Below are positions 14,697 to 59,114 of a DNA stretch of 64,000 nt, piece by piece. The DNA is from Bdellovibrionota bacterium (GTDB lineage Bacteria; Bdellovibrionota_G; JALEGL01; DATDPG01), in the NCBI GenBank assembly GCA_035292885.1, contig DATDPG010000164.1:1386-65385 (forward strand), given 5' to 3'. Position numbers and translations under genes: made by a program. Position 1 is the stretch's first letter; the number at the start of each line of letters is the position of its first letter. Below the pieces are notes generated by a model, which worked only from the letters and a program-made list of their open reading frames with translations, had not been told where the DNA came from and searched no databases.

Positions 14697-15716
14697 GTGC
14701 TTAAGAATCTTTCAAGACCGGCCGCGTTGTATTCACTCCTGACGCTGATCGCATGTGGCGGCCCGGAACCGCTTCCCCCAAAAACTGGCGACCCGCAAAA
14801 TCAGGCGGCTCTTGGAACCACACCCTGTGCCGCCGGCTATCAAGGAACGGATACCGACGGCGATGAAATTCCCGACCAATGCGAACAGCTCTTGGGCACC
14901 GATCCGAACAATCCGGACTGCAATGGGAACGGTATACCGGACGGCATGGATAACCCGATCGATTGCAGCCACAAACCCGCGGATGAGTGCGACGTCGCCT
15001 GCCAGGACAATAAGAATCGGATGTACAATGAATTGGCGAATTCACTAATGCTGGGTTCTTCAGCTATGGCCAGAAGCGCCCCGGCCGGACATACCGTTTC
15101 GGTAGACAAACAACAAATGGCCTTTGGCCCGCTCAAGAACATCACACACCCAAAATTTCAACCAACTCTAAGAGGGGACTCAAAGTGCGACACCCCCAAC
15201 AACGTATTCTTCCTGGTACAAGGCAAAGTCGACGGAAAGGCCGCGACCATCGAGTTTTGCGGAGATATTGAGACAAGCAAGCTTCCCGGCGTTACGGACG
15301 CAACCGACAAAACAGCGGACCCGTTAGATGGTTCATCGCTCAAACTGTGGAAAATTGGCAATGCTGACGGCAAGAAGTTTGACCCGGGCGCACTGCAGGT
15401 CAATAACATCGATGTCACTCAAACCTTCGATAAACTCAATATCAGTGGGGCCGTCGACCCCTGTTACGGCATAACGAACGACCCAAATTGTTCGGGCAAT
15501 CACATAATTTTTCTAAATCTTCACATGGAACTCTCAAGTAGTTACAAAATAGAGTTCTCAGGAATTTATAAGAACGAGGAAGTGACGGGGAAAACGGAGA
15601 AAATTGTAAAGGATTGGGTCCGAACAGTTGACATGGCCACGAAGGCAGAGGCTTCTTACTCACCGGGATACCTCGGATTCTGGGTAAATGGACCCACAAG
15701 CGCCCCTACTTACTAG
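14697..15716 (+). CDS. secreted lipoprotein with thrombospondin-type-3-like Ca-binding repeats
   Basis: Lipobox LIACGG. DTDGDEIPD / DPNNPDCNGNGIPDGMDNPIDC Asp-rich repeats. Paralogous N-terminus to the 20562 gene. Confidence 0.5.
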   Translation: MLKNLSRPAALYSLLTLIACGGPEPLPPKTGDPQNQAALGTTPCAAGYQGTDTDGDEIPDQCEQLLGTDPNNPDCNGNGIPDGMDNPIDCSHKPADECDVACQDNKNRMYNELANSLMLGSSAMARSAPAGHTVSVDKQQMAFGPLKNITHPKFQPTLRGDSKCDTPNNVFFLVQGKVDGKAATIEFCGDIETSKLPGVTDATDKTADPLDGSSLKLWKIGNADGKKFDPGALQVNNIDVTQTFDKLNISGAVDPCYGITNDPNCSGNHIIFLNLHMELSSSYKIEFSGIYKNEEVTGKTEKIVKDWVRTVDMATKAEASYSPGYLGFWVNGPTSAPTY

Positions 15717-16011: not shown

Positions 16012-16233
16012 GTGGCCGAGAAGAAATTTGAAAGCGCCCTCTCCGAGTTGGAATCCATCGTCTCCAAGCTCGAATCCGAAGAACTTCCGCTGGAGGACTC
16101 TTTGGAGCTCTTCGAAAAAGGGATCAAGCTCTCCCGCCTCTGCTCCAAGAAACTGGCCGAAGCCGAAAAGAAGGTCGACGCCCTGGTGGCGGAGCTGGCG
16201 AAAGATCAACCTCAAGAAACGCAAAGTAGCTAG
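16012..16233 (+). CDS. xseB: exodeoxyribonuclease VII small subunit
   Basis: GTG start. FESALSELESIVSKLESEELPLEDSLELFEKGIKL matches XseB. Confidence 0.8.
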   Translation: MAEKKFESALSELESIVSKLESEELPLEDSLELFEKGIKLSRLCSKKLAEAEKKVDALVAELAKDQPQETQSS

Positions 16234-16399
16234 TGTCCCGGGTCCGAAATAGATTGATAACGAAGGACGTCGATGCGGCCGGATGGCAAGGCGCGACGAC
16301 GATGGCGTACTTGCAAAGCTGTGCGTCGAGGAGGAGCAACACAGCCAGCCGGGATGCAGCGGCGGCCGAGTATCAAGATATTTCGGACCCGGGACACTA
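16231..16399. repeat. intergenic inverted-repeat element (about 30-bp near-perfect terminal inverted repeats around a 108-bp core); MITE-like or RNA structure
   Basis: ctagtgtcccgggtccgaaatagattgata (16230-16260) versus tatcaagatatttcggacccgggacactaa (16369-16398). The arms abut the xseB stop and the ispA GTG. Confidence 0.6.
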
Positions 16400-16402
16400 A
16401 CT

Positions 16403-17322: not shown

Positions 17323-17751
17323 ATGCTCGACCTAGTCGCCCGAATACTGAAGAACGACCGCACCGTCGTATTTGCCTATCTTTTTGGCTCAAGGGCAAAG
17401 CAATACCAGCATTCTCAAAGCGATTGGGATATCGCGGTATTTCTTGATCCGCCACCGAAAGACGGACCGCACGGAAAGAAATATTTGGACCTTTACCTGA
17501 AAATTTCCAAAGAACTGCGCACGGACTCCGTTGATGTCGTCATTTTGAACTGTGCCACGCCATCCTTGGCAAAGGCGGCACTAACCGGAAAGCGACTTTT
17601 CTGCAGGAACACGGCCAAATATGTTCGATATTTTGTCCAGCTCATGCACGACCTAGACGATCAGATGTACCTAGTGGACGCATACGTTCCGGCGCTTAAG
17701 AAGCGCCTTAACGAAAGGACGGGTCGTGGTCGACCGAGCACTCGTCACTGA
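17323..17751 (+). CDS. MntA-type nucleotidyltransferase antitoxin (type VII TA)
   Basis: GS..G......D.D NTase motif (FGSRAKQYQHSQSDWDIAVF). Confidence 0.8.
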   Translation: MLDLVARILKNDRTVVFAYLFGSRAKQYQHSQSDWDIAVFLDPPPKDGPHGKKYLDLYLKISKELRTDSVDVVILNCATPSLAKAALTGKRLFCRNTAKYVRYFVQLMHDLDDQMYLVDAYVPALKKRLNERTGRGRPSTRH

Positions 17752-18139
17752 ACGTCTTAAGTTGATCGACGATTATCTCCGGCTCGCGGAGCGCTTATCA
17801 CGAAACGCTCGAAAACGATTTATTGAGAATCCGGAGATCCATATGCTGGCGGAAAGAGCACTGCATCTTGCGCTTGAAGCAATGCTCGACGTATCTAGTC
17901 ATATCGTGTCGGCCCGGAATCTGGGGCCTCCGCAGAGCTATGGAGACGTGATCTTTCGTCTGGCTGAAGGGGGCGTGATTCCTGAGCGTTTGGCACATCA
18001 GTTACGGCCATGGGTAGGCATGCGCAATGTGCTCGTTCATGGATACTCAAAACTAGATCACGGCCAGGTCCATCAAGCGATTCGAAGGGATCTGTCTTCG
18101 GTACGGCGCTTTTGCGCGGCAGTCTCCAAATTGCTTTGA
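17726..18139 (+). CDS. HepT-like (DUF86) toxin
   Basis: R-x4-H-x-Y-like motif (MRNVLVHGY). Overlaps mntA by 26 nt. Stop overlaps the tlyA TTG. Confidence 0.8.
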   Translation: MVDRALVTERLKLIDDYLRLAERLSRNARKRFIENPEIHMLAERALHLALEAMLDVSSHIVSARNLGPPQSYGDVIFRLAEGGVIPERLAHQLRPWVGMRNVLVHGYSKLDHGQVHQAIRRDLSSVRRFCAAVSKLL

Positions 18140-18897: not shown

Positions 18898-19100
18898 AAT
18901 CGACGAAGGTCCTGGGCAGGCGGTCGGGAGAACTTGAAAATTCACCTGAGGCCGCGTCTCAGTGGCTGGCCACGGTAGCCGCTCTGCGAAAGGGAAAGGG
19001 AATCTGCCCCCGGGGCCTCTATCGGTTCAAAAGTTTCGATGAGGCGGATGAATGGATGATCGAGATGATGGCTCGCGAGTCTCTCGGGTCCCTACAATAG
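18894..19100 (+). CDS. small ORF translationally coupled to tlyA (GTGA overlap), possible partner of the downstream NTase
   Basis: 68-aa ORF. GTG overlaps the tlyA stop. Overlaps the NTase start by 49 nt. No recognisable motifs. Confidence 0.2.
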   Translation: MKSTKVLGRRSGELENSPEAASQWLATVAALRKGKGICPRGLYRFKSFDEADEWMIEMMARESLGSLQ

Positions 19101-19546
19101 ACGATCTCGTCCGCCTTTGCCGCCACCTAAACGAACAGAACGTGGAGTACGTCGTTATCGGTGGGTTCGCCGTGATTCACCACGGATATCTCCGGGCGAC
19201 AGCCGACATCGACCTGTTGGTTCAGAAGAAACAGGCCAACGTGGAAAAGATCAAAACGGCGATGGGTTACTTGGAAGACCAGGCTGCCCGAGATCTACTT
19301 CCGGACGATCTGTCAAAATATACGGTTGTGCGTGTGGCGGACGAGATCGTCGTGGATCTCATGGCGAAAGCTTGCGGTCATTCCTTTGAGGATTTACGCA
19401 GTCAAATCGAGGAGGTTGAATTACAGGGAGTCCGCATCCCGTACCTTACGGCAGCCGGACTCTTGAAAACCAAAGCCGGCATTCGGCCAAAGGATCAGCA
19501 GGATCGCGCTTATCTGGAGCGACTGCTCAAGTCGAAACCGAAATAG
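19052..19546 (+). CDS. nucleotidyltransferase-fold protein (Pol-beta superfamily), hypothetical
   Basis: VIGGFAVIHHGYLRATADIDLLV fits the hG[GS]...Dh[DE]h NTase signature. Confidence 0.5.
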   Translation: MDDRDDGSRVSRVPTIDDLVRLCRHLNEQNVEYVVIGGFAVIHHGYLRATADIDLLVQKKQANVEKIKTAMGYLEDQAARDLLPDDLSKYTVVRVADEIVVDLMAKACGHSFEDLRSQIEEVELQGVRIPYLTAAGLLKTKAGIRPKDQQDRAYLERLLKSKPK

Positions 19547-19560
19547 GATTCGTTAAGATT

Positions 19561-19989
19561 TCACCTTTTCGTGAGCGTTCGAACCGTCTTCATGAACGCC
19601 GGATAGTGCCTAAGGGCCGTCTTGGCTCCGGTGAACACCTTCCCGGGAGTAAGGTCGTCGATCAGGTGCGCAATGGCGTCCCGAATTCGGGCGGATGAAG
19701 CGAGGCCCGAGGCCAGCTTGGTCGATAGGACACCCCGGCGACCGAGCACCAGGAATGCATCCGGATACGTGGGCACGGTTAGTTGGTAATTTTTCTTCAG
19801 GATAATGCAGGCGACATCCACCGCCCATTCCACGAGGCGTTCGATGTGACGTTCGGTCGCCAACTGATCCATTCGGTTTCGCCGATACGCTCGCTCCCCC
19901 TTCCGGAGAATTTCTTCCATCTCCAGTAACGTGCCACGCATAAAGTCGAGCTTTCGGACGATGATCTGTTTGTCGAGTGCCGTCAGCAT
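19561..19989 (-). CDS. HepT-like (DUF86) toxin
   Basis: IRDAIAHLID motif region, 142 aa. Overlaps the upstream mntA by 7 nt. Confidence 0.8.
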   Translation of the reverse strand: MLTALDKQIIVRKLDFMRGTLLEMEEILRKGERAYRRNRMDQLATERHIERLVEWAVDVACIILKKNYQLTVPTYPDAFLVLGRRGVLSTKLASGLASSARIRDAIAHLIDDLTPGKVFTGAKTALRHYPAFMKTVRTLTKR

Positions 19990-20432
19990 GTGAGGCGTTC
20001 GTCAAGGAAGTCGTCCAGTAATTCCCGTCGCAGGCCGTCGAATTTTTCGTTGTCCATGAACTGGCGGCTGGCGAGGGAGAAGAAGCGGTCGAATTCGCCG
20101 GTCTTTCGTTCGTAGACGAGTCGGCCCTGGCAGGCGGCGAATCGGGCGATGGGGTCGGCGTGGTCCAGGAACATGACGTCAGCGTCGTCGCGGCCGAGGA
20201 GGCTTTTGAGTTCGGTGATGATTTTCCCGTGGTCGAATTTGAACTGGAAAAGAACGGCGATGTCGAGGTCGGGTTCGGGGCCTTGAAGGCCGGTGACGGC
20301 GGAGCCGAACAGGAGGACGAGGCGGGGGCGTCGGCGTTGGATCCAGGGGGAGAGCTTGCGGCGCAGTTGATGGGCTCGCACGGGAGTGCACAGTACCATG
20401 GGGGTTGGCGGGGTCAGTTTTCGCCGCGGCAT
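19983..20432 (-). CDS. MntA-type nucleotidyltransferase antitoxin
   Basis: LLFGSAVTG....PDLDIAVLF NTase motif. Confidence 0.8.
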   Translation of the reverse strand: MPRRKLTPPTPMVLCTPVRAHQLRRKLSPWIQRRRPRLVLLFGSAVTGLQGPEPDLDIAVLFQFKFDHGKIITELKSLLGRDDADVMFLDHADPIARFAACQGRLVYERKTGEFDRFFSLASRQFMDNEKFDGLRRELLDDFLDERLTC

Positions 20433-20561: not shown

Positions 20562-21863
20562 ATGAAGATGAAATTACAGCCGGAGGACGCCATGATTCGC
20601 CGATCGATTTCAGCACTTCAAGCAGCTGGATTGTCAATACTGCTTGTTCTCGGTGGATGTGGAAAAAATGGCGTTACGCCGACCCCCATCAACCCAAATG
20701 GCACCGGCAACAGCCTTGGCGAACAAATTACTCAAACGCTCTGTGCGGAAACGGGCGATGTCGATTCAGATGGTGATGGCATCTGCGATACCGACGAAGC
20801 GAATGACCCTACCCTAGGGCCCGATTGTGTTGACAACCCGGATTGCAACAACAACGAAACACCCGACGGCGATGAACCTTCTTGGTGGGTCAAGAATAGG
20901 AAGTACGTCTGGATGGCTTCGGCATTGGGTGCTGGTTCGGTTTACTTAGTAAAGGCGTGCGATGGAAACGGCGACGGCTGTAACTTCCTATCGAATGTGG
21001 CTGGAAAAACGGGCGACGACGTCAATAACCAGGCCGGTTGGACAACCTCCGTCATCGGGAATCTGACTGGCGGCTATGCCTATGTGAAGCTCGACAACAT
21101 GCAAGGTCGATCCACATTCAAGCTTGGATTTACGGCTAAATCCGACAAAAGGGTCGTACTCGGCGGCATTGACCTCGGCTACGACTTTGGGGGATATATC
21201 GCCGGCTTCCCGCAATTCTCTAACGGGGCCTCCTTCCAAAAGGACGCAACCGGCGCGGCTAAAGTGGACCTCCCCTTGGCGGGAGTATTCTCCGACAACC
21301 TGAAAACCAACCATCCTCTGCGTGAGTTCGGAGTGCCCTGCGTGTCAGGCTCGTCATCTCCAGGGAATGTGTTTGAAAGCATCGAACAAAAAATAAAGGA
21401 TCTCGGCTATTCAGGTTATCCCGTCATTCTCTCTTTCGTCGCCCAGGCCGACGGGAACCAAGACTGTTGGTTTGCCAAGAGCCTCCTGCCCGAATCGGTC
21501 TTCAACGCGGCGAAGCCGAGCACTCTAACACTTAAATTTCCGCCTCTCGGCAAAACCGCCGAGGCCACTTTCTCACTTCACTCCGAACACCCCGAAGTCG
21601 GAGCGGTCATCGATTCGTTCGATTTCGTAGCAAAATGGGTGGGCAAGGTCGGTGGGCCTGATCTTACGAACCCCGCTTCTGGCCTCCCAACAAACCCTGT
21701 AGAGAACTACGCCGACGGCTACCAATACTGGCCCAAGCTTGAAAAAGCACTCGGATTAAATTCCCCGCAGGTGTCGTGTTCGAATATGACTTGTTCCATA
21801 AAGAATCTCTTTTCTCCCCTTCAAAATCTTTACGCCGTATTCGAAATGACAAGGTCTCAGTAG
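20562..21863 (+). CDS. secreted lipoprotein with Asp-rich Ca-binding (TSP3-like) repeats, paralog of the 14697 gene
   Basis: Lipobox VLGGCG. DVDSDGDGICDTDEANDP, DNPDCNNNETPDGDE. Confidence 0.5.
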   Translation: MKMKLQPEDAMIRRSISALQAAGLSILLVLGGCGKNGVTPTPINPNGTGNSLGEQITQTLCAETGDVDSDGDGICDTDEANDPTLGPDCVDNPDCNNNETPDGDEPSWWVKNRKYVWMASALGAGSVYLVKACDGNGDGCNFLSNVAGKTGDDVNNQAGWTTSVIGNLTGGYAYVKLDNMQGRSTFKLGFTAKSDKRVVLGGIDLGYDFGGYIAGFPQFSNGASFQKDATGAAKVDLPLAGVFSDNLKTNHPLREFGVPCVSGSSSPGNVFESIEQKIKDLGYSGYPVILSFVAQADGNQDCWFAKSLLPESVFNAAKPSTLTLKFPPLGKTAEATFSLHSEHPEVGAVIDSFDFVAKWVGKVGGPDLTNPASGLPTNPVENYADGYQYWPKLEKALGLNSPQVSCSNMTCSIKNLFSPLQNLYAVFEMTRSQ

Positions 21864-22129
21864 CGCAAAAACGACGCGCCCAATACAAACCCATTCGTCT
21901 TATAACTTTGCTCCGGAGCGACGCGGCCAAAAATTTCGGGATGATGGCTCAAGAAAGCGTATTGCCTCTGGACCTCGCGGAAGCATTGGCTCCCTCGGTC
22001 GGATTGCAAAATCGAATTGTTCATGAATACGGCCTTCTCGACGCCCGAAATGTTTTCGCTGGCACCGAAAAAGCCCTTCAATTGTTTCCTAAATATACCG
22101 CGTCGATTCTGGGGCTCATGAAAAACTGA
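21776..22129 (+). CDS. HepT-like DUF86 domain protein, probably truncated/remnant
   Basis: Exact Rx4HxY motif (QNRIVHEYGLLD). The N-terminal part overlaps the lipoprotein 3' end, so the likely true product is under 100 aa. No MNT partner. Confidence 0.45.
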   Translation: MFEYDLFHKESLFSPSKSLRRIRNDKVSVAQKRRAQYKPIRLITLLRSDAAKNFGMMAQESVLPLDLAEALAPSVGLQNRIVHEYGLLDARNVFAGTEKALQLFPKYTASILGLMKN

Positions 22130-22688
22130 AAACCCGCGAGAGTGGCGGAAGTGCATCGGAATCGAACCGACCAACACTCGCTCGGCGGGCGTTCGCTGGT
22201 TTTGAAGACCAGGAAGGACACCAGTCCCCAGCCACTTCCGTCGCCGGAATCATTACCCTTTTTTGGGTTGCCTGAAAATAGGTCGTTCTGAAGTGTCCAT
22301 TTTGGTGTCTGCTTTTTGTCGGAAATGGCCCATTCCAGATCCGGGAACTCACCCTTGGTCGACAATCTCGTACCGCGCAAATAGCGGAGGCACGGTCCAC
22401 CAGAACACCATCATGATCGCGCTTTCGGGCACACCCGCCTTCACCCATGATATTTGTGCCGCCGAACTCGGATCCACTTTCCCTTCTTGTCCCGTTCCCA
22501 AAGCCTTCCTTTCCGTTCATCTTCCAAAGCTCCTTCAAATTCTTCATCAAATCCGCATTATTCAGAACGTCGAACGTTTCGGAAAAAGCTTCATAATCTT
22601 CCATCGGTAAAAGGGCTCCGACGGCACGACCGTCCTTCGTCAAAATATACCCCCGCCCCTCCTCTTCCATAGCGCGCACAAGCGTCAA
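22116..22688 (-). CDS. Phd/YefM-family antitoxin domain (N-terminal ~80 aa) in an ORF that reads on through the tRNA-Sec gene
   Basis: GYILTKDGRAVGALLPMEDYEAFSETFDVLNNADLMKNLKE matches the Phd/YefM fold. The C-terminal ~110 aa are low-complexity and overlap selC. No cognate toxin downstream. Confidence 0.55.
   Translation of the reverse strand: MTLVRAMEEEGRGYILTKDGRAVGALLPMEDYEAFSETFDVLNNADLMKNLKELWKMNGKEGFGNGTRRESGSEFGGTNIMGEGGCARKRDHDGVLVDRASAICAVRDCRPRVSSRIWNGPFPTKSRHQNGHFRTTYFQATQKRVMIPATEVAGDWCPSWSSKPANARRASVGRFDSDALPPLSRVFSFS
22143..22239 (-). tRNA. selC: tRNA-Sec (selenocysteine, anticodon UCA), CCA encoded
   Basis: Minus-strand sequence GGAAGTGG-CT-GGGGAC/TGGT/GTCCTT-C-CTGGT/CUUCAAA/ACCAG-long variable arm-GTCGG/TTCGATT/CCGAT-GCACTTCC-G-CCA. 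8/5-type acceptor/T geometry, 6-bp D stem with 4-nt loop, long variable arm. Architecture parallels E. coli selC. Confidence 0.7.
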
Positions 22689-22694
22689 CGGCCG

Positions 22695-23183
22695 TTATTG
22701 CTGCGGCTTCTCGGCGCCTTTCGCCAAGGCTTCGTTCGCTTCCGGATATCGCAGATCGTCCCCGCTATACCATGCCAGACGCCCGCGCGAAGTAATTGAA
22801 TACGGCCGGTCTCCGCCCGGCGCCTTATACATGAACGCGTTTCCCCACGGGTCTTTGGGAACCGAAATGCGTCCGATATATCCGTCTTGATAATATTTCT
22901 GCGGCCGCGGCGGAACGCGCGGTTGCCTCACCAGCGCATCGAGTCCCTGTTCGGTTGTCGGATAAAAGCCGTTGTCCTGCTTATATGACTCGAGCGCGAC
23001 GCTGAGCCGTTGCAATTGATCGCGCACCATGAGGCGGCGGAGACGATCGTCCTGAGACATGTAAAAGGGATTGAAACGAGCCCAGGGCACAATAAAGATT
23101 CCGGCTAACACAAGCGCGATTCCGAGAAGACCGATTCCGACGTAGGCTTTCTTGATCCGATTCATAACGGCGGAGGGTAGCAC
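22695..23183 (-). CDS. GspG-like (type II secretion pseudopilin domain) protein lacking a canonical prepilin leader
   Basis: DPWGNAFMY motif typical of T2SS_G. The N-terminal TM has no G-F-T-L-I-E class III signal. Confidence 0.55.
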   Translation of the reverse strand: MLPSAVMNRIKKAYVGIGLLGIALVLAGIFIVPWARFNPFYMSQDDRLRRLMVRDQLQRLSVALESYKQDNGFYPTTEQGLDALVRQPRVPPRPQKYYQDGYIGRISVPKDPWGNAFMYKAPGGDRPYSITSRGRLAWYSGDDLRYPEANEALAKGAEKPQQ

Positions 23184-25977: not shown

Positions 25978-26253
25978 ATGCCGCAACTGGTAACGGTCAC
26001 AAAAGCGAAACAACGGCTGCTCGAACTAGCACGAAGGAACCAAGAACTCGGAGAGTCCTTCATCCTTCTCAAAAATGGAAATCCCGTGAGCGCGCTATTG
26101 CCGTTTGAGGAATATGAGGCGTTGCTGGAAACGCTCGATATCCTCGAAACAGAACCGGATATTTTGGCCAAGTTACGGGCGGCGGAGAGGGAGGTTGCCG
26201 CCGGTAGGTACACGGTCTGGAAAGGCCGACCGCAAAGGCGTAAGAAGCAATAA
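25978..26253 (+). CDS. Phd/YefM-family antitoxin (orphan)
   Basis: ILLKNGNPVSALLPFEEYEALLETLDIL; 91 aa; no toxin gene follows (nadA is next). Confidence 0.7.
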   Translation: MPQLVTVTKAKQRLLELARRNQELGESFILLKNGNPVSALLPFEEYEALLETLDILETEPDILAKLRAAEREVAAGRYTVWKGRPQRRKKQ

Positions 26254-29442: not shown

Positions 29443-29952
29443 CTATTGAATAATAACCGGTGTGCGTTCTTCGGGCCGCCGAAGGAAATGCTCTTTCTTG
29501 ATTTTCTCCTGCAGAAGGAGAAGGCCCTCGGTCAGGGCTTCCGGTCGCGGAGGGCAGCCGGGAACGTAAACGTCCACGGGAATGATCTTATCGACCCCTT
29601 TCATCACCGAATACGCGAGCGAAAAGAGGCCGCCGCATGTGGCGCAGCTTCCCATCGACAAAACGTACTTCGGCTCCGGCATCTGTTCGTACAAAAGCTT
29701 TAGACGCACGCCCATTTTGTACGTCAGTGTGCCGGCCACGATCATGAGGTCCGATTGGCGTGGCGTGGCCCGAGGAACGGATCCAAACCGGTCGATATCG
29801 GCCCGCGGGCCGCCGGTTTGCATCAGTTCAATGGCGCAACAGGCGAGGCCGAAAAGCAGATACCACTGCGAGCTGGCGCGGGACCAGTTGATCACTTCGT
29901 CCACACGCGTGGTAAAAAAATTACCGTCGATTTCTTGATGCAAGCTTTTCAT
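29443..29952 (-). CDS. NuoB-like (complex I 20-kDa / hydrogenase small-subunit-like) Fe-S protein, solo copy
   Basis: [18 protein letters not shown] cysteine motifs. No other nuo genes adjacent. Confidence 0.8.
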
Positions 29953-34910: not shown

Positions 34911-35105
34911 ATGAAGGCCCGCGATCTCAAGAGGCTGCTGAGATTACGGGGATGGTGGGACACGGGTCGCGGGTCCAAGCACGAAAAATGGACCAACGGA
35001 ATTCATACGATCGCCGTGCCTCGGCATAAGGGAGTTGCGGAAGGAACCGCTCGGGCGATTCTGAAGGAAGCCGATGAGTATGGCCAAAAGGAGGAAGAGT
35101 CATGA
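34911..35105 (+). CDS. hicA: HicA toxin (mRNA interferase)
   Basis: GSKHEKW...IHTIAVPRH motif, 64 aa. Confidence 0.8.
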   Translation: MKARDLKRLLRLRGWWDTGRGSKHEKWTNGIHTIAVPRHKGVAEGTARAILKEADEYGQKEEES

Positions 35106-35530
35106 CGTTTGAAGGACGTATTTATCCCCCCGAGAAAGGGGAACGTTATTGGGAAGTAAAGATTCCGGACCTTGGGGTCTTCACGCAGGGGAAATCGGAA
35201 AAGGATGCCTACGCGATGGCGGTAGATGCCGTAGAAACAGTGGTGGATCAAAAAGGCTTTCGCGTCGAGATCCGGCCCTTTGGGGATGGTCGCTTCTTGC
35301 TTTTGGCCAAGCATCCCGCGCCTCTGATCGGAAGATGGCTGCAACGTCTTAGAACGGAAAAGGGATTAACCGTGCGACAAGCAGCCAGACGAATGGGCTC
35401 CGTTTCACCTGAAGCCTGGTCGCGATATGAATCTGGCCGGGCTTCGCCAACGATCGACAAACTCACTCAACTGCTTCGTGCCGTTGCACCGGAGGCTCAG
35501 TTCACTTGGAAGCGGTTGCGGTTAGCCTAA
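35102..35530 (+). CDS. hicB: HicB antitoxin with C-terminal XRE-type HTH
   Basis: HicB N-terminal fold plus LRTEKGLTVRQAARRMGVS HTH. 4-nt overlap with hicA. Confidence 0.8.
   Translation: MTFEGRIYPPEKGERYWEVKIPDLGVFTQGKSEKDAYAMAVDAVETVVDQKGFRVEIRPFGDGRFLLLAKHPAPLIGRWLQRLRTEKGLTVRQAARRMGSVSPEAWSRYESGRASPTIDKLTQLLRAVAPEAQFTWKRLRLA

Positions 35531-39963: not shown

Positions 39964-39976
<13 letters not shown>
37967..39976 (-). CDS. nuoG: NuoG-like 75-kDa Fe-S subunit
   Basis: ATG at 39976 ([14 protein letters not shown]). N-terminal 2Fe-2S Cys set, [36 protein letters not shown] molybdopterin-like domain. Confidence 0.8.
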
Positions 39977-41711
<1,735 letters not shown>

Positions 41712-41715
<4 letters not shown>

Positions 41716-50296: not shown

Positions 50297-53020
50297 CTAG
50301 ATGTTGCAACGACAATATTGGAAAGTATCTTTGCAGCCCGCCTTGCAGGACGCTTTGGCGTCTTTGCATTGCTGTTTGCATGCTTGTTTGGTGTCCTTGC
50401 ACGTTTGCTTGCAATCCCGCTTGGTTTGTCGGCAGGTCTGTTTGCACTCCCGTTTGTCCTGTCTACACTCCCTCCGGCACTTTCTGCGCTGCGACCCCGT
50501 GTACTGATCGCAGTTGGCGTAGCATGTGTCTTTGGTATTTACGCATGAAGTGGAGCAGCTCGCCTTTTGTGTTTCACAGGTTTGAACGCACAGACCTTTC
50601 ACAGTCTTGCAGTCGCTCTTGCAGGACTGGAACGAGTCTCTGCACCCCGTTCGGCAGGTGTGGCGATTCGGCTTACAACTTTGTTTCTGTTGGCGGTACG
50701 CGCGTTTCCGATCTTTTTTGGATACGTACGCTTGAATGCCGGAAAGATCCGATGGGGCCGTTGCCACAGGGCCGGTCCGAGGTCCGATACTTCGTTCCCA
50801 CATACGAATGAATTTCTCCGATGAATTTTCGATGTTCGTCGTGTCGATTCCGAAATTGTCGAGCTGATGTACCAGATCCGGGAGGAGCCCCTCGTGGCCG
50901 AGACCCAGGATATCGAACTCGGTCCCGACGCCGTTAAAGGACCGTTTGCATTCCGCTCGAGCCTGACAGCGGCTTTCTCTCCGGATACCGCTTCCGGAGC
51001 AGGGATCGGTTTTTCCATACGTCTCGCAGGCGTCGGTGTTTCCATACCGCGGGCGGGTCTGTGTGATGAAACCGTTAAGGTCCGTGGCGAAAGCGATGTC
51101 GACGTTTAATCCGTTGCGCCCCAAGGCATACGCTTGCGCAAATGATTTAGCGGATCCGTGACAGTCGTTCGGAACCAAGGCTGGCTGATAGTGAAGAACT
51201 TCTTCATTAGCCGTTCGAAGGCCGAAAATTCCTCCCGTCTCCTTCACAATGTCTACGATGTTCGCGGGTGTCGTTTTCTCTTCCAACTGCTTTTTTGGTG
51301 TCATGATCTCGCGGAAGTGACCGTGGGACATGAAGAGGGGGTAATAGTTTCTCGCGACGGAGATGTTATAGATTTCGTTCACAGCGTTCTCGGATACATG
51401 GGAGAGATCGATGAGCATCCCGAGATTCATCATCTCGTTGACCAGGGCGACACCGTCCGCCGTAAGGCCCTTTACGTTCTTGCAACTTGAGTCAAGATCA
51501 AAACCGAAGGGATATCGATCCGAACAGTCTGTTTCGATGTGACACGTGTCCATGAATTCGCCGATGAAGAAAACGGTGTGATGAGGGGCCGCGCCTGAAA
51601 ACTGATTGTCGAATTGGTGCACCGGCTGAACCGATCGAACGCCCAGGTCGTAAAAACGACGGAGCTCAGCCATATAGTCGGGCGCGCCTTCGAACAGGCG
51701 GGAAGCTTCAATGGCCAGGATGATCGCGAGTTTTCCCTCATGAATGATCCGCCGCGCATCTTGCGGTGTGAGCGCAATCTCGGCCCATGGGTGATTTTGA
51801 ACAAAGTTGTGCGCCATGTTGATCTCTTGTTCGACGGCGAACATCTCATCGCAGAAGGGGTTGAATAGCGTCGGCGGGTTCAGATTACACAAAAAAGCGT
51901 TATCGACGGCTGACATGACCATTAACGAAAGTCCCCGGTCGTGCGCCTGCTTTAACCACCCCTCCCAAACTTGCTGGTGAGCCGAGACATCCCAACGGGG
52001 CCAGCCGGTATACGTCGGATAGCCGAACGTTCGCAAAAGGTGAAAGCCTGTGTCTTTCCCCAAAATTTCGGAAAGTACGAAGTCCAGCACGTGGATTAAA
52101 ATCGTTGTCGCGTGAGCGCACGGATTGAGCGCTGTCAGACGCTCCAAGAACATTCGACCATGGCTAAAACCGTCGCATGGCGCGAGAGCGATATCCTCGG
52201 GTCCAGCGGCGTTTCCCCAAAGCCAGTTCCCGCCGAAGGCGAGTTCGGAAAACGTGTGAATGTGCGTATCGGCAAACCCAGGGACCGGACTCAGCGCGGC
52301 CGCTTGGTTCGACAGGGGGACGCGAAAGATCAGGTACTCTTTGTGATTAAACCCGGGATAGAATGGAGCCGACGCGTGGCTGGTGTCGTTTCCACTGTTA
52401 AACCAAATCCAATGTGCGTTGGATGAAATGGCTGGGACTACTGGAAACGGGCTCTCCACGGGAAAGGTTCCGTTGTTTACGCCCCCGATCGTCGGGATTC
52501 GCCATTTGAGATTCGTATCCGCGTCGCCGGCGATCGAGCGAATGTCCGCCGAACCGGGCCCCTGTGAGGGAAACGGCTGGTCAAGATCAATGAGAGAGGG
52601 GACCACCTGGACCAATGGGTCCCCGCTCAAAATCATCTTACGGTTGACCTGAATTTGAAACAGGAGGCCCTGCGTGCCGACATCGTCGCCCCAAGCGGTA
52701 ATGTAAAGGAAAGGATCGTTGGTAACGATGGACGCCGCGGCGGCGCTCCCGGCCGACGCATTTCCGCCGCTGACCGGCGTGATCGATCCATTGGCCGATT
52801 GGGTGAACAAGGCGAACGAGTCGAAGCCCATGACTTGAGTCTGAACATTCAGCCCCCCTCCGCCGCCAGGCCCGTTAGGGTTATGCTTCTGGGTGTTGCC
52901 AGCGACCGTCGCGGCACGGACGCCGAGACCGTTCGTGAAGGCGAATGCGACGATTAACCATCCAAGAAGGGGTAGAAAAACGCCCACGAGCGGTCTCTTC
53001 GGTTGCCGAGGAGGGCGCAT
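50297..53020 (-). CDS. large secreted protein: N-terminal unknown domain, central putative metal-dependent hydrolase-like region, C-terminal Cys/Lys 11-residue ladder (~13 repeats of C-x3-C-x6)
   Basis: Signal peptide. ...CKPNRHTCRTGCRDSFQSCKSDCKTVKGLCVQTC...CKQTCRQTKRDCKQTCKDTKQACKQQCKDAKASCKAGCKDT tail with strict 4/7 Cys spacing. Confidence 0.5.
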   Translation of the reverse strand: MRPPRQPKRPLVGVFLPLLGWLIVAFAFTNGLGVRAATVAGNTQKHNPNGPGGGGGLNVQTQVMGFDSFALFTQSANGSITPVSGGNASAGSAAAASIVTNDPFLYITAWGDDVGTQGLLFQIQVNRKMILSGDPLVQVVPSLIDLDQPFPSQGPGSADIRSIAGDADTNLKWRIPTIGGVNNGTFPVESPFPVVPAISSNAHWIWFNSGNDTSHASAPFYPGFNHKEYLIFRVPLSNQAAALSPVPGFADTHIHTFSELAFGGNWLWGNAAGPEDIALAPCDGFSHGRMFLERLTALNPCAHATTILIHVLDFVLSEILGKDTGFHLLRTFGYPTYTGWPRWDVSAHQQVWEGWLKQAHDRGLSLMVMSAVDNAFLCNLNPPTLFNPFCDEMFAVEQEINMAHNFVQNHPWAEIALTPQDARRIIHEGKLAIILAIEASRLFEGAPDYMAELRRFYDLGVRSVQPVHQFDNQFSGAAPHHTVFFIGEFMDTCHIETDCSDRYPFGFDLDSSCKNVKGLTADGVALVNEMMNLGMLIDLSHVSENAVNEIYNISVARNYYPLFMSHGHFREIMTPKKQLEEKTTPANIVDIVKETGGIFGLRTANEEVLHYQPALVPNDCHGSAKSFAQAYALGRNGLNVDIAFATDLNGFITQTRPRYGNTDACETYGKTDPCSGSGIRRESRCQARAECKRSFNGVGTEFDILGLGHEGLLPDLVHQLDNFGIDTTNIENSSEKFIRMWERSIGPRTGPVATAPSDLSGIQAYVSKKDRKRAYRQQKQSCKPNRHTCRTGCRDSFQSCKSDCKTVKGLCVQTCETQKASCSTSCVNTKDTCYANCDQYTGSQRRKCRRECRQDKRECKQTCRQTKRDCKQTCKDTKQACKQQCKDAKASCKAGCKDTFQYCRCNI

Positions 53021-53261: not shown

Positions 53262-53341
53262 AGCTCATCGCCGAATTGAAGAGCGGAAGTCTTTCGGAAA
53301 AATCGTGTTGATCCCGTAGATCCGGTTCCCGCTACCGATAC
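53262..53341. repeat. 80-bp direct repeat (copy 2), duplicated MDR 3' end
   Basis: 78/80 identity to 49481-49560. Upstream ~65 nt still encode ...FEGRLKVFLDQTFALKDAAKAHRRIEERKSFGKIVLIP, a diverged copy of the MDR C-terminus. Abuts the relE stop. Confidence 0.75.
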
Positions 53342-53589
53342 ACTTCACTCCGATGGGCGATCTTCACGACGTCCACAACTTTGCGGGCGTCATCGACAGC
53401 ATAGACGACTCGATAAGGTCCTTGTCTCAGCCGGTATTTTTCCTCGCCTGAAAGCTTCTGCGAGCCGGGCGGCCGGGGATTCAAAGATAAGCCTTCGATT
53501 CGCGCGACGATCTGTTGAACAATTTTCTTTGGAAAACCCTCGAGCTCCTTGAGCGCCGATGGCTTGATGGAGAGACTATAATTTTCCAC
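53332..53589 (-). CDS. relE: RelE/ParE-family toxin
   Basis: 85 aa; ...YRLRQGPYRVVYAVDDARKVVDVVKIAHR typical of RelE/StbE. Confidence 0.75.
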   Translation of the reverse strand: MENYSLSIKPSALKELEGFPKKIVQQIVARIEGLSLNPRPPGSQKLSGEEKYRLRQGPYRVVYAVDDARKVVDVVKIAHRSEVYR

Positions 53590-53806
53590 TCGAGCGCAGT
53601 CTCTTCAACGCATCTTCAAACGGGAGGCTCTTCTCTTTTTTGCGCTCGTCGAACGAGGCCAGATCCTCAAGGTCCTCGGAAAGATTGAGCCGAATCACTT
53701 CGTTCACAATCTCCGACACCGATTTTTCAATCTCGGCGGCCTTGAGTTTCAGGGCTTTATGAAGGTCGCGATCAAAGTAAATGGTCGTTCTCGAAGTGTT
53801 TGCCAT
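53576..53806 (-). CDS. ribbon-helix-helix (CopG/Arc-type) antitoxin
   Basis: TTIYFDRDLHKALKLKAAEIEKSVSEIVNEVI RHH pattern. Overlaps relE by 14 nt. Confidence 0.7.
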   Translation of the reverse strand: MANTSRTTIYFDRDLHKALKLKAAEIEKSVSEIVNEVIRLNLSEDLEDLASFDERKKEKSLPFEDALKRLRSSGKL

Positions 53807-58443: not shown

Positions 58444-58899
58444 TCATGCGGCACGTCGAACGTCGCTTGAAAGTAACGGTTGAACTTGAATCTGTGCTTT
58501 GACGCCGAAAACGGCGAGGGTCCTCTCCAGTGTTTCAACGGACGGATTTCCCGTACCTCGCTCCAATTTTTCATACGCCTGTCTTGAAATTCTTAACTTG
58601 TTAGCTACGAGTCGGGTCGTCCATCCCTTCTCTCGACGCAGCTTTCGCAAAAGAAGAGCGATACCAATTTCAAGAGATACGGGAATAAGATGAGTTTCCC
58701 GTTTTCTGGAGTACCGGCGAGGAACCGGCAGATCAAGACCACGGTTCAGGTCTTCGAGCAGACACCCTTCCAGCGCCTCGCGGGCCGACGTTAACGCACA
58801 ATCGAATGACTCCGCGTAGGTAAAGACATTGGGGAGGCCGGGGAAAGTTACCCGATATCCCTTTCCTTCTTTCCGAATTTTCGCCTCGAAATACATCAT
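58444..58899 (-). CDS. hicB: HicB-family antitoxin with XRE HTH
   Basis: YFEAKIRKEGKGYRVTFPGLPNVFTYAESFDCAL (HicB fold) plus C-terminal HTH. Confidence 0.7.
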   Translation of the reverse strand: MMYFEAKIRKEGKGYRVTFPGLPNVFTYAESFDCALTSAREALEGCLLEDLNRGLDLPVPRRYSRKRETHLIPVSLEIGIALLLRKLRREKGWTTRLVANKLRISRQAYEKLERGTGNPSVETLERTLAVFGVKAQIQVQPLLSSDVRRAA

Positions 58900-59114
58900 T
58901 CTCCTACCTTCCATTTGATTCCTAACTGCTTGAGGATCACCCTAACAAACGACCGTGGGAACTCTCCCACATGACTCGAAATCGGAACGGAGCGATAGCC
59001 TTCTTTCGTCATTATCCAGTGACCTCCCGATGTCCGGGCATGTTTCCAGCCGTGCTCCTCCGCCAGCTTTTTAAGATCGCGGGGTTTCAACGATGGAACT
59101 TTCATAGTATGCAA
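58896..59114 (-). CDS. hicA: HicA-family toxin
   Basis: 72 aa, HGWKHARTSGGHWIMTKEGYRSVPISSH. Confidence 0.75.
   Translation of the reverse strand: MHTMKVPSLKPRDLKKLAEEHGWKHARTSGGHWIMTKEGYRSVPISSHVGEFPRSFVRVILKQLGIKWKVGE

Follow-up and report, generated by a model that had tools for sequence, protein, structure and literature searches.

The window, i.e., the whole stretch of 64 kb of DNA analysed here, originates from the MAG of an uncultured, deep-branching member of the Bdellovibrionota. ARAGORN calls a sole tRNA in it, namely a tRNA-SeC with anticodon tca, the gene selC, located on the minus strand (Table 1). At the same place, the Rfam family RF01852 matches 22147-22239(-) over its full length (model positions 1-91) with 69.1 bits for a gathering score of 47 (E = 4.8e-12); no other Rfam family passes its threshold anywhere in the 64 kb. 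From the 3' end of the tRNA outwards, the order is a HepT-like ORF, a 433-aa protein without family, an intact HepT/MntA pair, a lone nucleotidyltransferase, tlyA, another MntA/HepT pair, and finally ispA and xseB. On the 5' side are found the remnant of a Phd antitoxin gene, gspG, an acyl-CoA dehydrogenase gene, an M20 peptidase gene and an orphan Phd gene just before nadA. Beyond the left edge of the window lie hut genes, a PemK toxin gene (just past the edge) and rplM/rpsI, and beyond the right edge PTPS, T2SSE and folE-like genes.

Table 1. Features at and around the tRNA-Sec gene, with positions in the window.
Feature	Position	Strand	Accession or locus tag	Evidence and remarks
MntA/HepT pair, intact	17323-18139	+		
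Lone nucleotidyltransferase	19052-19546	+		
MntA/HepT pair, intact	19561-20432	-		
433-aa hypothetical protein	20562-21863	+	HLG20517; VI895_11975	
Degenerate HepT-like gene, 117 aa	21776-22129	+	HLG20518	Pfam PF01934, NCBIfam; converges on tRNA 3' end
Mechanical ORF, 190 codons (184 aa from ATG at 22670)	22116-22688	-		Runs from antitoxin remnant through spacer into tRNA; not a gene
Weak terminator-like hairpin, 5 bp	22123-22149	-		Consensus scan; uses tRNA 3' end, followed by TTTTCAGTTT
tRNA-Sec gene (selC)	22143-22239	-		97 nt including G73 and encoded CCA; ARAGORN, RF01852, compensatory changes across four tRNA-Sec sequences
Anticodon UCA (tRNA positions 35-37), inside loop CUUCAAA	22203-22205	-		Sequence, ARAGORN
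Non-coding spacer upstream of tRNA	22240-22469	-		Codon scores -0.06 to -0.49 in ORF frame
50-aa hypothetical protein	22349-22501	-	HLG20519; VI895_11990	
Phd/YefM antitoxin gene remnant (ORF residues 2-73)	22470-22685	-		Pfam PF02604, phmmer
GspG-type pseudopilin gene	22695-23165	-	HLG20520.1	Pfam T2SSG, 89 bits
Orphan Phd antitoxin	25978-26253	+		4 nt upstream of nadA

Read on the minus strand, selC has the sequence GGAAGUGGCUGGGGACUGGUGUCCUUCCUGGUCUUCAAAACCAGCGAACGCCCGCCGAGCGAGUGUUGGUCGGUUCGAUUCCGAUGCACUUCCGCCA. The acceptor strand GGAAGUGG pairs with GCACUUCC through seven Watson-Crick pairs, with a G.G opposition at layer 8, and a two-nucleotide linker separates it from a D stem of 6 bp (GGGGAC/GUCCUU, including two G.U pairs) closed by a D loop of 4 nt (UGGU). 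The anticodon stem (CCUGGU/ACCAGC) is composed of five pairs with a C.C on top and bears a 7-nt loop. From the anticodon stem to the T stem, the variable region extends over 23 nt and folds into 5 bp plus 3 bp. The T stem (GUCGG/CCGAU) comprises 5 bp, i.e., G.U, U-A, C-G, G-C and G-C, with the loop UUCGAUU, and the discriminator G73 is the G at position 94, after which the CCA is encoded. As such, the acceptor/T branch exhibits the bacterial 8/5 arrangement of 13 layers, layer 8 being the G.G mismatch. A 13-bp acceptor domain, a long variable arm and G73 are functional identity features of tRNA-Sec (PMC7609411), and all tRNA-Sec identity features are intact in the gene considered here. Minimum-free-energy folding of the single sequence does not yield a cloverleaf (z = -1.6), a common and uninformative outcome with tRNAs. 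The sequence of the locus is identical in four independently assembled contigs and is therefore no assembly artefact; the contigs sharing identical proteins are 99.98-100% identical to the window and add no diversity.

The structure was further considered in an alignment of four sequences, namely the window selC, the selC of Escherichia coli and the tRNA-Sec genes of two Sericytochromatia MAGs (L017 and L019), which had come up by chance, the E. coli sequence being confirmed by its presence, under the annotation tRNA-Sec, in 5,425 of the 5,426 complete genomes of this species. When the 8/5 cloverleaf is laid on this alignment, 92% of the cells are paired and 13 of the 33 pairs differ on both sides, a support matched by none of 500 shuffles, and slid partners pair at 39-53% only. 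In the D stem, pairing is complete (100%) in all four sequences, with four compensatory pairs. Against RF01852, the two Sericytochromatia genes score 70.5 and 70.6 bits, and the two non-standard positions of the window selC, i.e., 8:86 (G.G) and 27:45 (C.C), are unpaired in both of them too, which makes these mismatches a trait common to the three genes and not a sign of decay. The two Sericytochromatia genes (L017, 21046-21141(-); L019, 17413-17508(-)) lie 6-10 kb downstream of the M20 peptidase homologue through which their loci were retrieved. The window has these two genes together as well, which is probably a coincidence. Altogether, 22143-22239(-) is a genuine, ordinary and canonical bacterial tRNA-Sec gene, a known kind of feature. 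An earlier note on this DNA, made from the letters alone, had already described a 97-nt minus-strand tRNA with the loop CUUCAAA, the anticodon UCA and a geometry close to that of E. coli selC, and had named ARAGORN as a check; both ARAGORN, which calls SeC exactly there, and Rfam, with a score above the gathering score, bear this out, and so do the 8/5 branch, the 6-bp D stem with its 4-nt loop, the long variable arm and the G73-CCA end.

The same note had pointed to a 190-aa ORF laid over the tRNA, which is indeed present on the minus strand but is not a real protein. When 1.84 billion representative proteins were searched exhaustively with phmmer, the ORF retrieved itself and seven others, all seven matches being limited to residues 2-73; no homologue of its tail was found in this collection, nor any Pfam or NCBIfam match, and the frame has no relatives beyond about residue 75-90. 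Codon usage was expressed as a log-odds score trained on those 26 ORFs of the window that reach 300 aa or more, these training genes spanning 0.12-0.41. The score per codon of the ORF is +0.40 over aa 1-60, -0.17 over aa 61-150 and -0.38 over the tRNA. In a sliding window, the score lies below 0 from about codon 81 and below -0.2 over codons 91-150 (about 22420 and below). What had been described as a low-complexity tail is instead an untranslated spacer followed by the tRNA, as indicated by these non-coding scores. A real protein of 190 or 184 aa, with an antitoxin-like N-terminus and an incidental tRNA-like fold, would agree with a frame that stays open for 190 codons and with three gene-calling pipelines reporting it. 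Against it stand the E-value of the tRNA match given above, the tail devoid of homologue, of domain match and of coding-like codon usage, and the absence of the ORF from the NCBI calls, so that the proposal has next to no probability left and can already be regarded as effectively refuted. As judged from homology and codon usage, the 190-codon ORF is to be considered an artefact beginning in a decayed antitoxin gene. Among its relatives, one of 163 aa with the same truncated start (P0131) was examined as a counterpart and set aside as a simply mis-started gene, the locus having no tRNA and the upstream frame being open.

Regarding annotation, the Prodigal-type calls of ENA, JGI/IMG and Logan place over the tRNA a product of 184 aa (or 187 aa) without Pfam match, which is absent in every start variant from the NCBI annotation of the same MAG. 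This phantom product (22116-22670(-); P0121 and P0122) forms a cluster of its own in a large public protein collection. In the NCBI annotation, a TPA record in which the contig measures 69,385 nt and carries HLG20515-HLG20524, protein accessions follow the gene order and locus tags step by five. Two tags, VI895_11980 and VI895_11985, fall between those of the 433-aa and the 50-aa hypothetical proteins, with a single protein there; therefore, one protein-less gene lies between 21863 and 22349, where the tRNA is. From this numbering of accessions and tags, VI895_11985 is probably the tRNA-Sec, already annotated by PGAP in GenBank. The description of the tRNA as unannotated thus applies to the Prodigal-type calls of ENA, JGI and Logan, but not to NCBI, if the protein-less tag at the position of the tRNA is read in this way. 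The 50-aa product HLG20519.1, located in the spacer between the remnant and the tRNA and in another frame than the ORF, has a codon score of 0.02 and no family match, and is likely spurious as well. The value of the present analysis is mainly practical and lies in part here: a phantom "protein" placed over a tRNA-Sec by Prodigal-type calls has entered large protein databases.

At the start of the ORF, the similarity to Phd/YefM antitoxins that had been proposed for the first ~80 aa is real, but it is partial and below threshold, with PF02604 matching ORF residues 3-48 at 24.9 bits for a cut-off of 29.8 (profile positions 16-61 of 74); no NCBIfam match was obtained for this part. Five of the seven phmmer relatives are antitoxins of 78-99 aa, in which the match starts at residue 16-18, and therefore the copy in the window is without the ~15 N-terminal residues. 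The gene of one intact relative (P0134) directly follows that of a ParE toxin, as seen in three contigs; another (P0132) has no ParE neighbour. In the search for a cognate toxin of the remnant, the gene found upstream was that of GspG, which ends 6 nt away with its stop codon two codons ahead of the ORF and in the same frame, and nothing toxin-like was found downstream. Rather than a read-through antitoxin, as first proposed, this stretch is more aptly called a dead remnant, deprived of ~15 residues at its N-terminus, of its stop codon and of a toxin partner. In the simplest history, a deletion would have taken the toxin gene together with the 5' end of the antitoxin gene. The antitoxin stop codon would have been lost later, the frame then staying open by chance through the spacer of 230 nt and the tRNA. 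The remnant may as such provide a small example of toxin-antitoxin decay, where the toxin is lost first and an antitoxin stub stays.

On the other side of the tRNA, the converging HepT-like gene is degenerate too. PF01934 matches its residues 49-107 at profile positions 59-116 of 120, i.e., the C-terminal half only, the NCBIfam model NF047751 reaches 38.3 bits for a cut-off of 60, and the codon score is 0.004. In alignment with two intact paralogues, the motif RX4HXY is replaced by QNRIVHEY, where the catalytic Arg is substituted by Gln. Over its first 29 codons, the HepT-like gene overlaps the one before it, and no adjacent MntA partner was found. The 433-aa protein encoded there is a predicted lipoprotein, and what it has in common with another one of 339 aa (14697-15716(+)) is limited to an N-terminal module rich in Cys and Asp (130 aa, 32% identity); neither of them has a Pfam or NCBIfam family. 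Further away, the junction where xseB ends and ispA starts is spanned by a 32-nt inverted repeat (16228-16259 and 16371-16402), whose arms are 111 nt apart and 91% complementary. At 50297-53020(-), a membrane-dipeptidase (M19) domain is found in a protein of 907 aa that ends in a Cys/Lys-rich tail (~130 residues of CKxxCK-like repeats) and has no NCBIfam match.

In enterobacteria, selC is a known site of genomic islands, and the tRNA had been pointed out as such an integration hotspot, with accessory DNA rich in toxin-antitoxin (TA) genes on its 3' side. The tRNA could accordingly be the edge of an old island at the 3' end of selC, the TA-rich region of ~19.0-22.1 kb being its degraded cargo, as would fit six toxin-antitoxin-related genes within 17.3-26.3 kb and a lineage-specific 433-aa protein, devoid of family, adjoining the 3' side of the tRNA. 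Against this, integrase, recombinase and transposase families are absent among the annotated genes of the window and its flanks. A second copy of the tRNA 3'-end 26-mer was not found with up to three mismatches. For a 17-mer of this end, two matches with three mismatches each occur at 52.7 and 56.4 kb, on the opposite strand and in genes, both on the 5', i.e., wrong, side and at least 30 kb from the tRNA. The GC content is flat, at 0.53-0.56 from 17 to 26 kb compared with 0.50-0.60 window-wide, and the supposed cargo is interspersed with housekeeping genes (tlyA, ispA and xseB). Toxin-antitoxin genes do lie 3' of the tRNA, as had been claimed, but they also occur 5' of it and tens of kb away among housekeeping genes, i.e., at 35102-35530(+), 53332-53806(-) and 58444-58914(-), comprising two HicB-like/HTH antitoxin-type genes and a ParE/RHH pair. 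The genome thus scatters toxin-antitoxin modules between housekeeping genes, with no sign linking them to integration at selC, which makes an old island improbable at this place. A syntenic relative of the locus was not found in the genome and metagenome collections searched. Via the M20 peptidase, the best identity among 185,579 species genomes was 54%, with no tRNA-Sec in the same position. Via the acyl-CoA dehydrogenase, the best match in metagenomes was at 76%, with a tRNA-Sec at none of 55 loci and at most one further gene shared. For GspG, the homologues retrieved were the identical protein and then proteins of at most 45% identity. In none of these loci is the gene order that of the window.

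With respect to expression, selC could be a short unit transcribed by itself, with what is left of the 3' part of a ParE/Phd module upstream and the degenerate HepT gene converging on its 3' end. A consensus scan of 21700-22800 gave no sigma-70-like promoter, although one would be expected in the spacer upstream of the tRNA. The terminator-like hairpin at the tRNA 3' end is the one site found for 1.5 expected in shuffles, and is only suggestive as a terminator. Once expressed, the tRNA-Sec would first be aminoacylated by SerRS with serine; the seryl-tRNA would then be converted to Sec-tRNA by SelA, with selenophosphate from SelD, and SelB would deliver the Sec-tRNA to those UGA codons followed by a SECIS hairpin.

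As for the partners of selC, neither selA, selB, selD nor selenoprotein genes were found in ~77 kb, i.e., the 64 kb of the window with ~8 kb on the left and ~5 kb on the right. Since sel genes are often dispersed in genomes, their absence from ~77 kb says little. In the window, a scan for pairs of same-frame ORFs split by a single TGA yielded only neighbouring genes or off-frame artefacts. Two apparent gaps were set aside, namely the one at 40-41.7 kb, which appears to be a NuoB-NuoD fusion gene, and the one at 47.5-48.5 kb, which corresponds to an amidohydrolase-like gene. The former is a 583-aa ORF (39964-41715(-)), which resembles such a fusion when judged by eye and is located in a nuo cluster, where NuoG and NuoI follow; a separate second NuoB-like gene (Oxidored_q6) is found 10 kb from it (29443-29952(-)). 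A literature search on Sec in Bdellovibrionota returned nothing useful.

Could selC be a relic in a lineage that lost Sec decoding, the gene being unused or decaying? The lack of Sec machinery and of selenoprotein genes in ~77 kb would agree with this, as would the two decaying neighbours and the two stem mismatches, and the phylum's best-known species, Bdellovibrio bacteriovorus, does not decode Sec although it carries selD and ybbB (PMC1273633). Yet the covariance score of the gene is level with that of other tRNA-Sec genes, the mismatches are shared and not private, all identity features are intact, and the absence of sel genes over a distance of this size is weak evidence given their dispersal. 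In complete genomes, moreover, selB and selC make up the gene signature of Sec decoding and selC goes with the full machinery (PMC1273633), and a relic is consequently regarded as quite unlikely. The gene could also be a tRNA-Sec-like opal suppressor or allo-tRNA inserting serine or another amino acid at UGA. Species of altered function resembling tRNA-Sec are known in metagenomes (PMC5389517), and no Sec machinery was seen nearby. The acceptor branches of such species are however of 12 bp (8/4 or 9/3) (PMC5389517) when that of the window selC has 13 layers (8/5), and its D stem of 6 bp with a D loop of 4 nt is like that of E. coli selC, which leaves an allo-tRNA extremely unlikely. A broader proposal, in which selC is kept without the Sec pathway for some other use, appears very unlikely as well; the gene would serve either as a serine-inserting UGA suppressor or as a substrate or decoy of the nearby HepT-family RNases. 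In MntA/HepT systems, the HEPN toxins act on tRNAs by trimming their 3' ends.

Taken as a whole, the locus is with high confidence explained by a canonical selC for Sec decoding, flanked by decayed toxin-antitoxin genes and overlaid by an artefact ORF. We infer that the tRNA-Sec would be expressed and used for Sec decoding, and a working Sec system in this lineage is likely. The lineage, whose neighbour proteins are only 45-76% identical to their nearest relatives, may as such be flagged as a probable Sec decoder. Genes interrupted by UGA elsewhere in the MAG should then be checked before being labelled as pseudogenes. For so distant a member of the phylum, Sec use would represent a modest extension and no surprise, and there is little new biology in the gene itself, selC being a standard and already-known kind of gene.

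Compared with known systems, the two flanking genes resemble toxin-antitoxin modules of different types. With the MntA/HepT modules of type VII, two of which are intact in the window, the HepT-like ORF has in common a C-terminal half matching the HepT family, and differs by its unmatched N-terminal half, its altered motif, its lack of MntA and its overlapped start. With the toxin-first ParE/Phd modules of type II, such as the one at the locus of the intact relative P0134, the remnant shares ORF residues 2-73 at 44-51% identity. It differs by the missing first ~15 residues, upstream ParE and stop codon, GspG being in the place of the toxin.

The tRNA gene itself has in common with E. coli selC (i) the anticodon UCA in the loop CUUCAAA, (ii) the first five acceptor pairs GGAAG/CUUCC, (iii) the 8+5 acceptor/T branch, the 6-bp D stem with a 4-nt loop and the long variable arm, and (iv) the G.U first pair of the T stem and G73 with an encoded CCA. 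The identity between the two is nonetheless only 61%, the variable arm being 2 nt longer in the window (97 compared with 95 nt in total), acceptor pair 8 being C-G in E. coli and G.G in the window, and the top pair of the anticodon stem G.U in the former and C.C in the latter; the window selC is also without adjoining island or integrase. The two Sericytochromatia tRNA-Sec genes, at 66-67% identity, belong to another phylum and another gene neighbourhood, but they have with the window selC a purine-purine mismatch at acceptor pair 8, an unpaired 27:45 and a near-equal Rfam score in common, and the anticodon stem and loop, CUGGUCUUCAAAACCAG, are identical.
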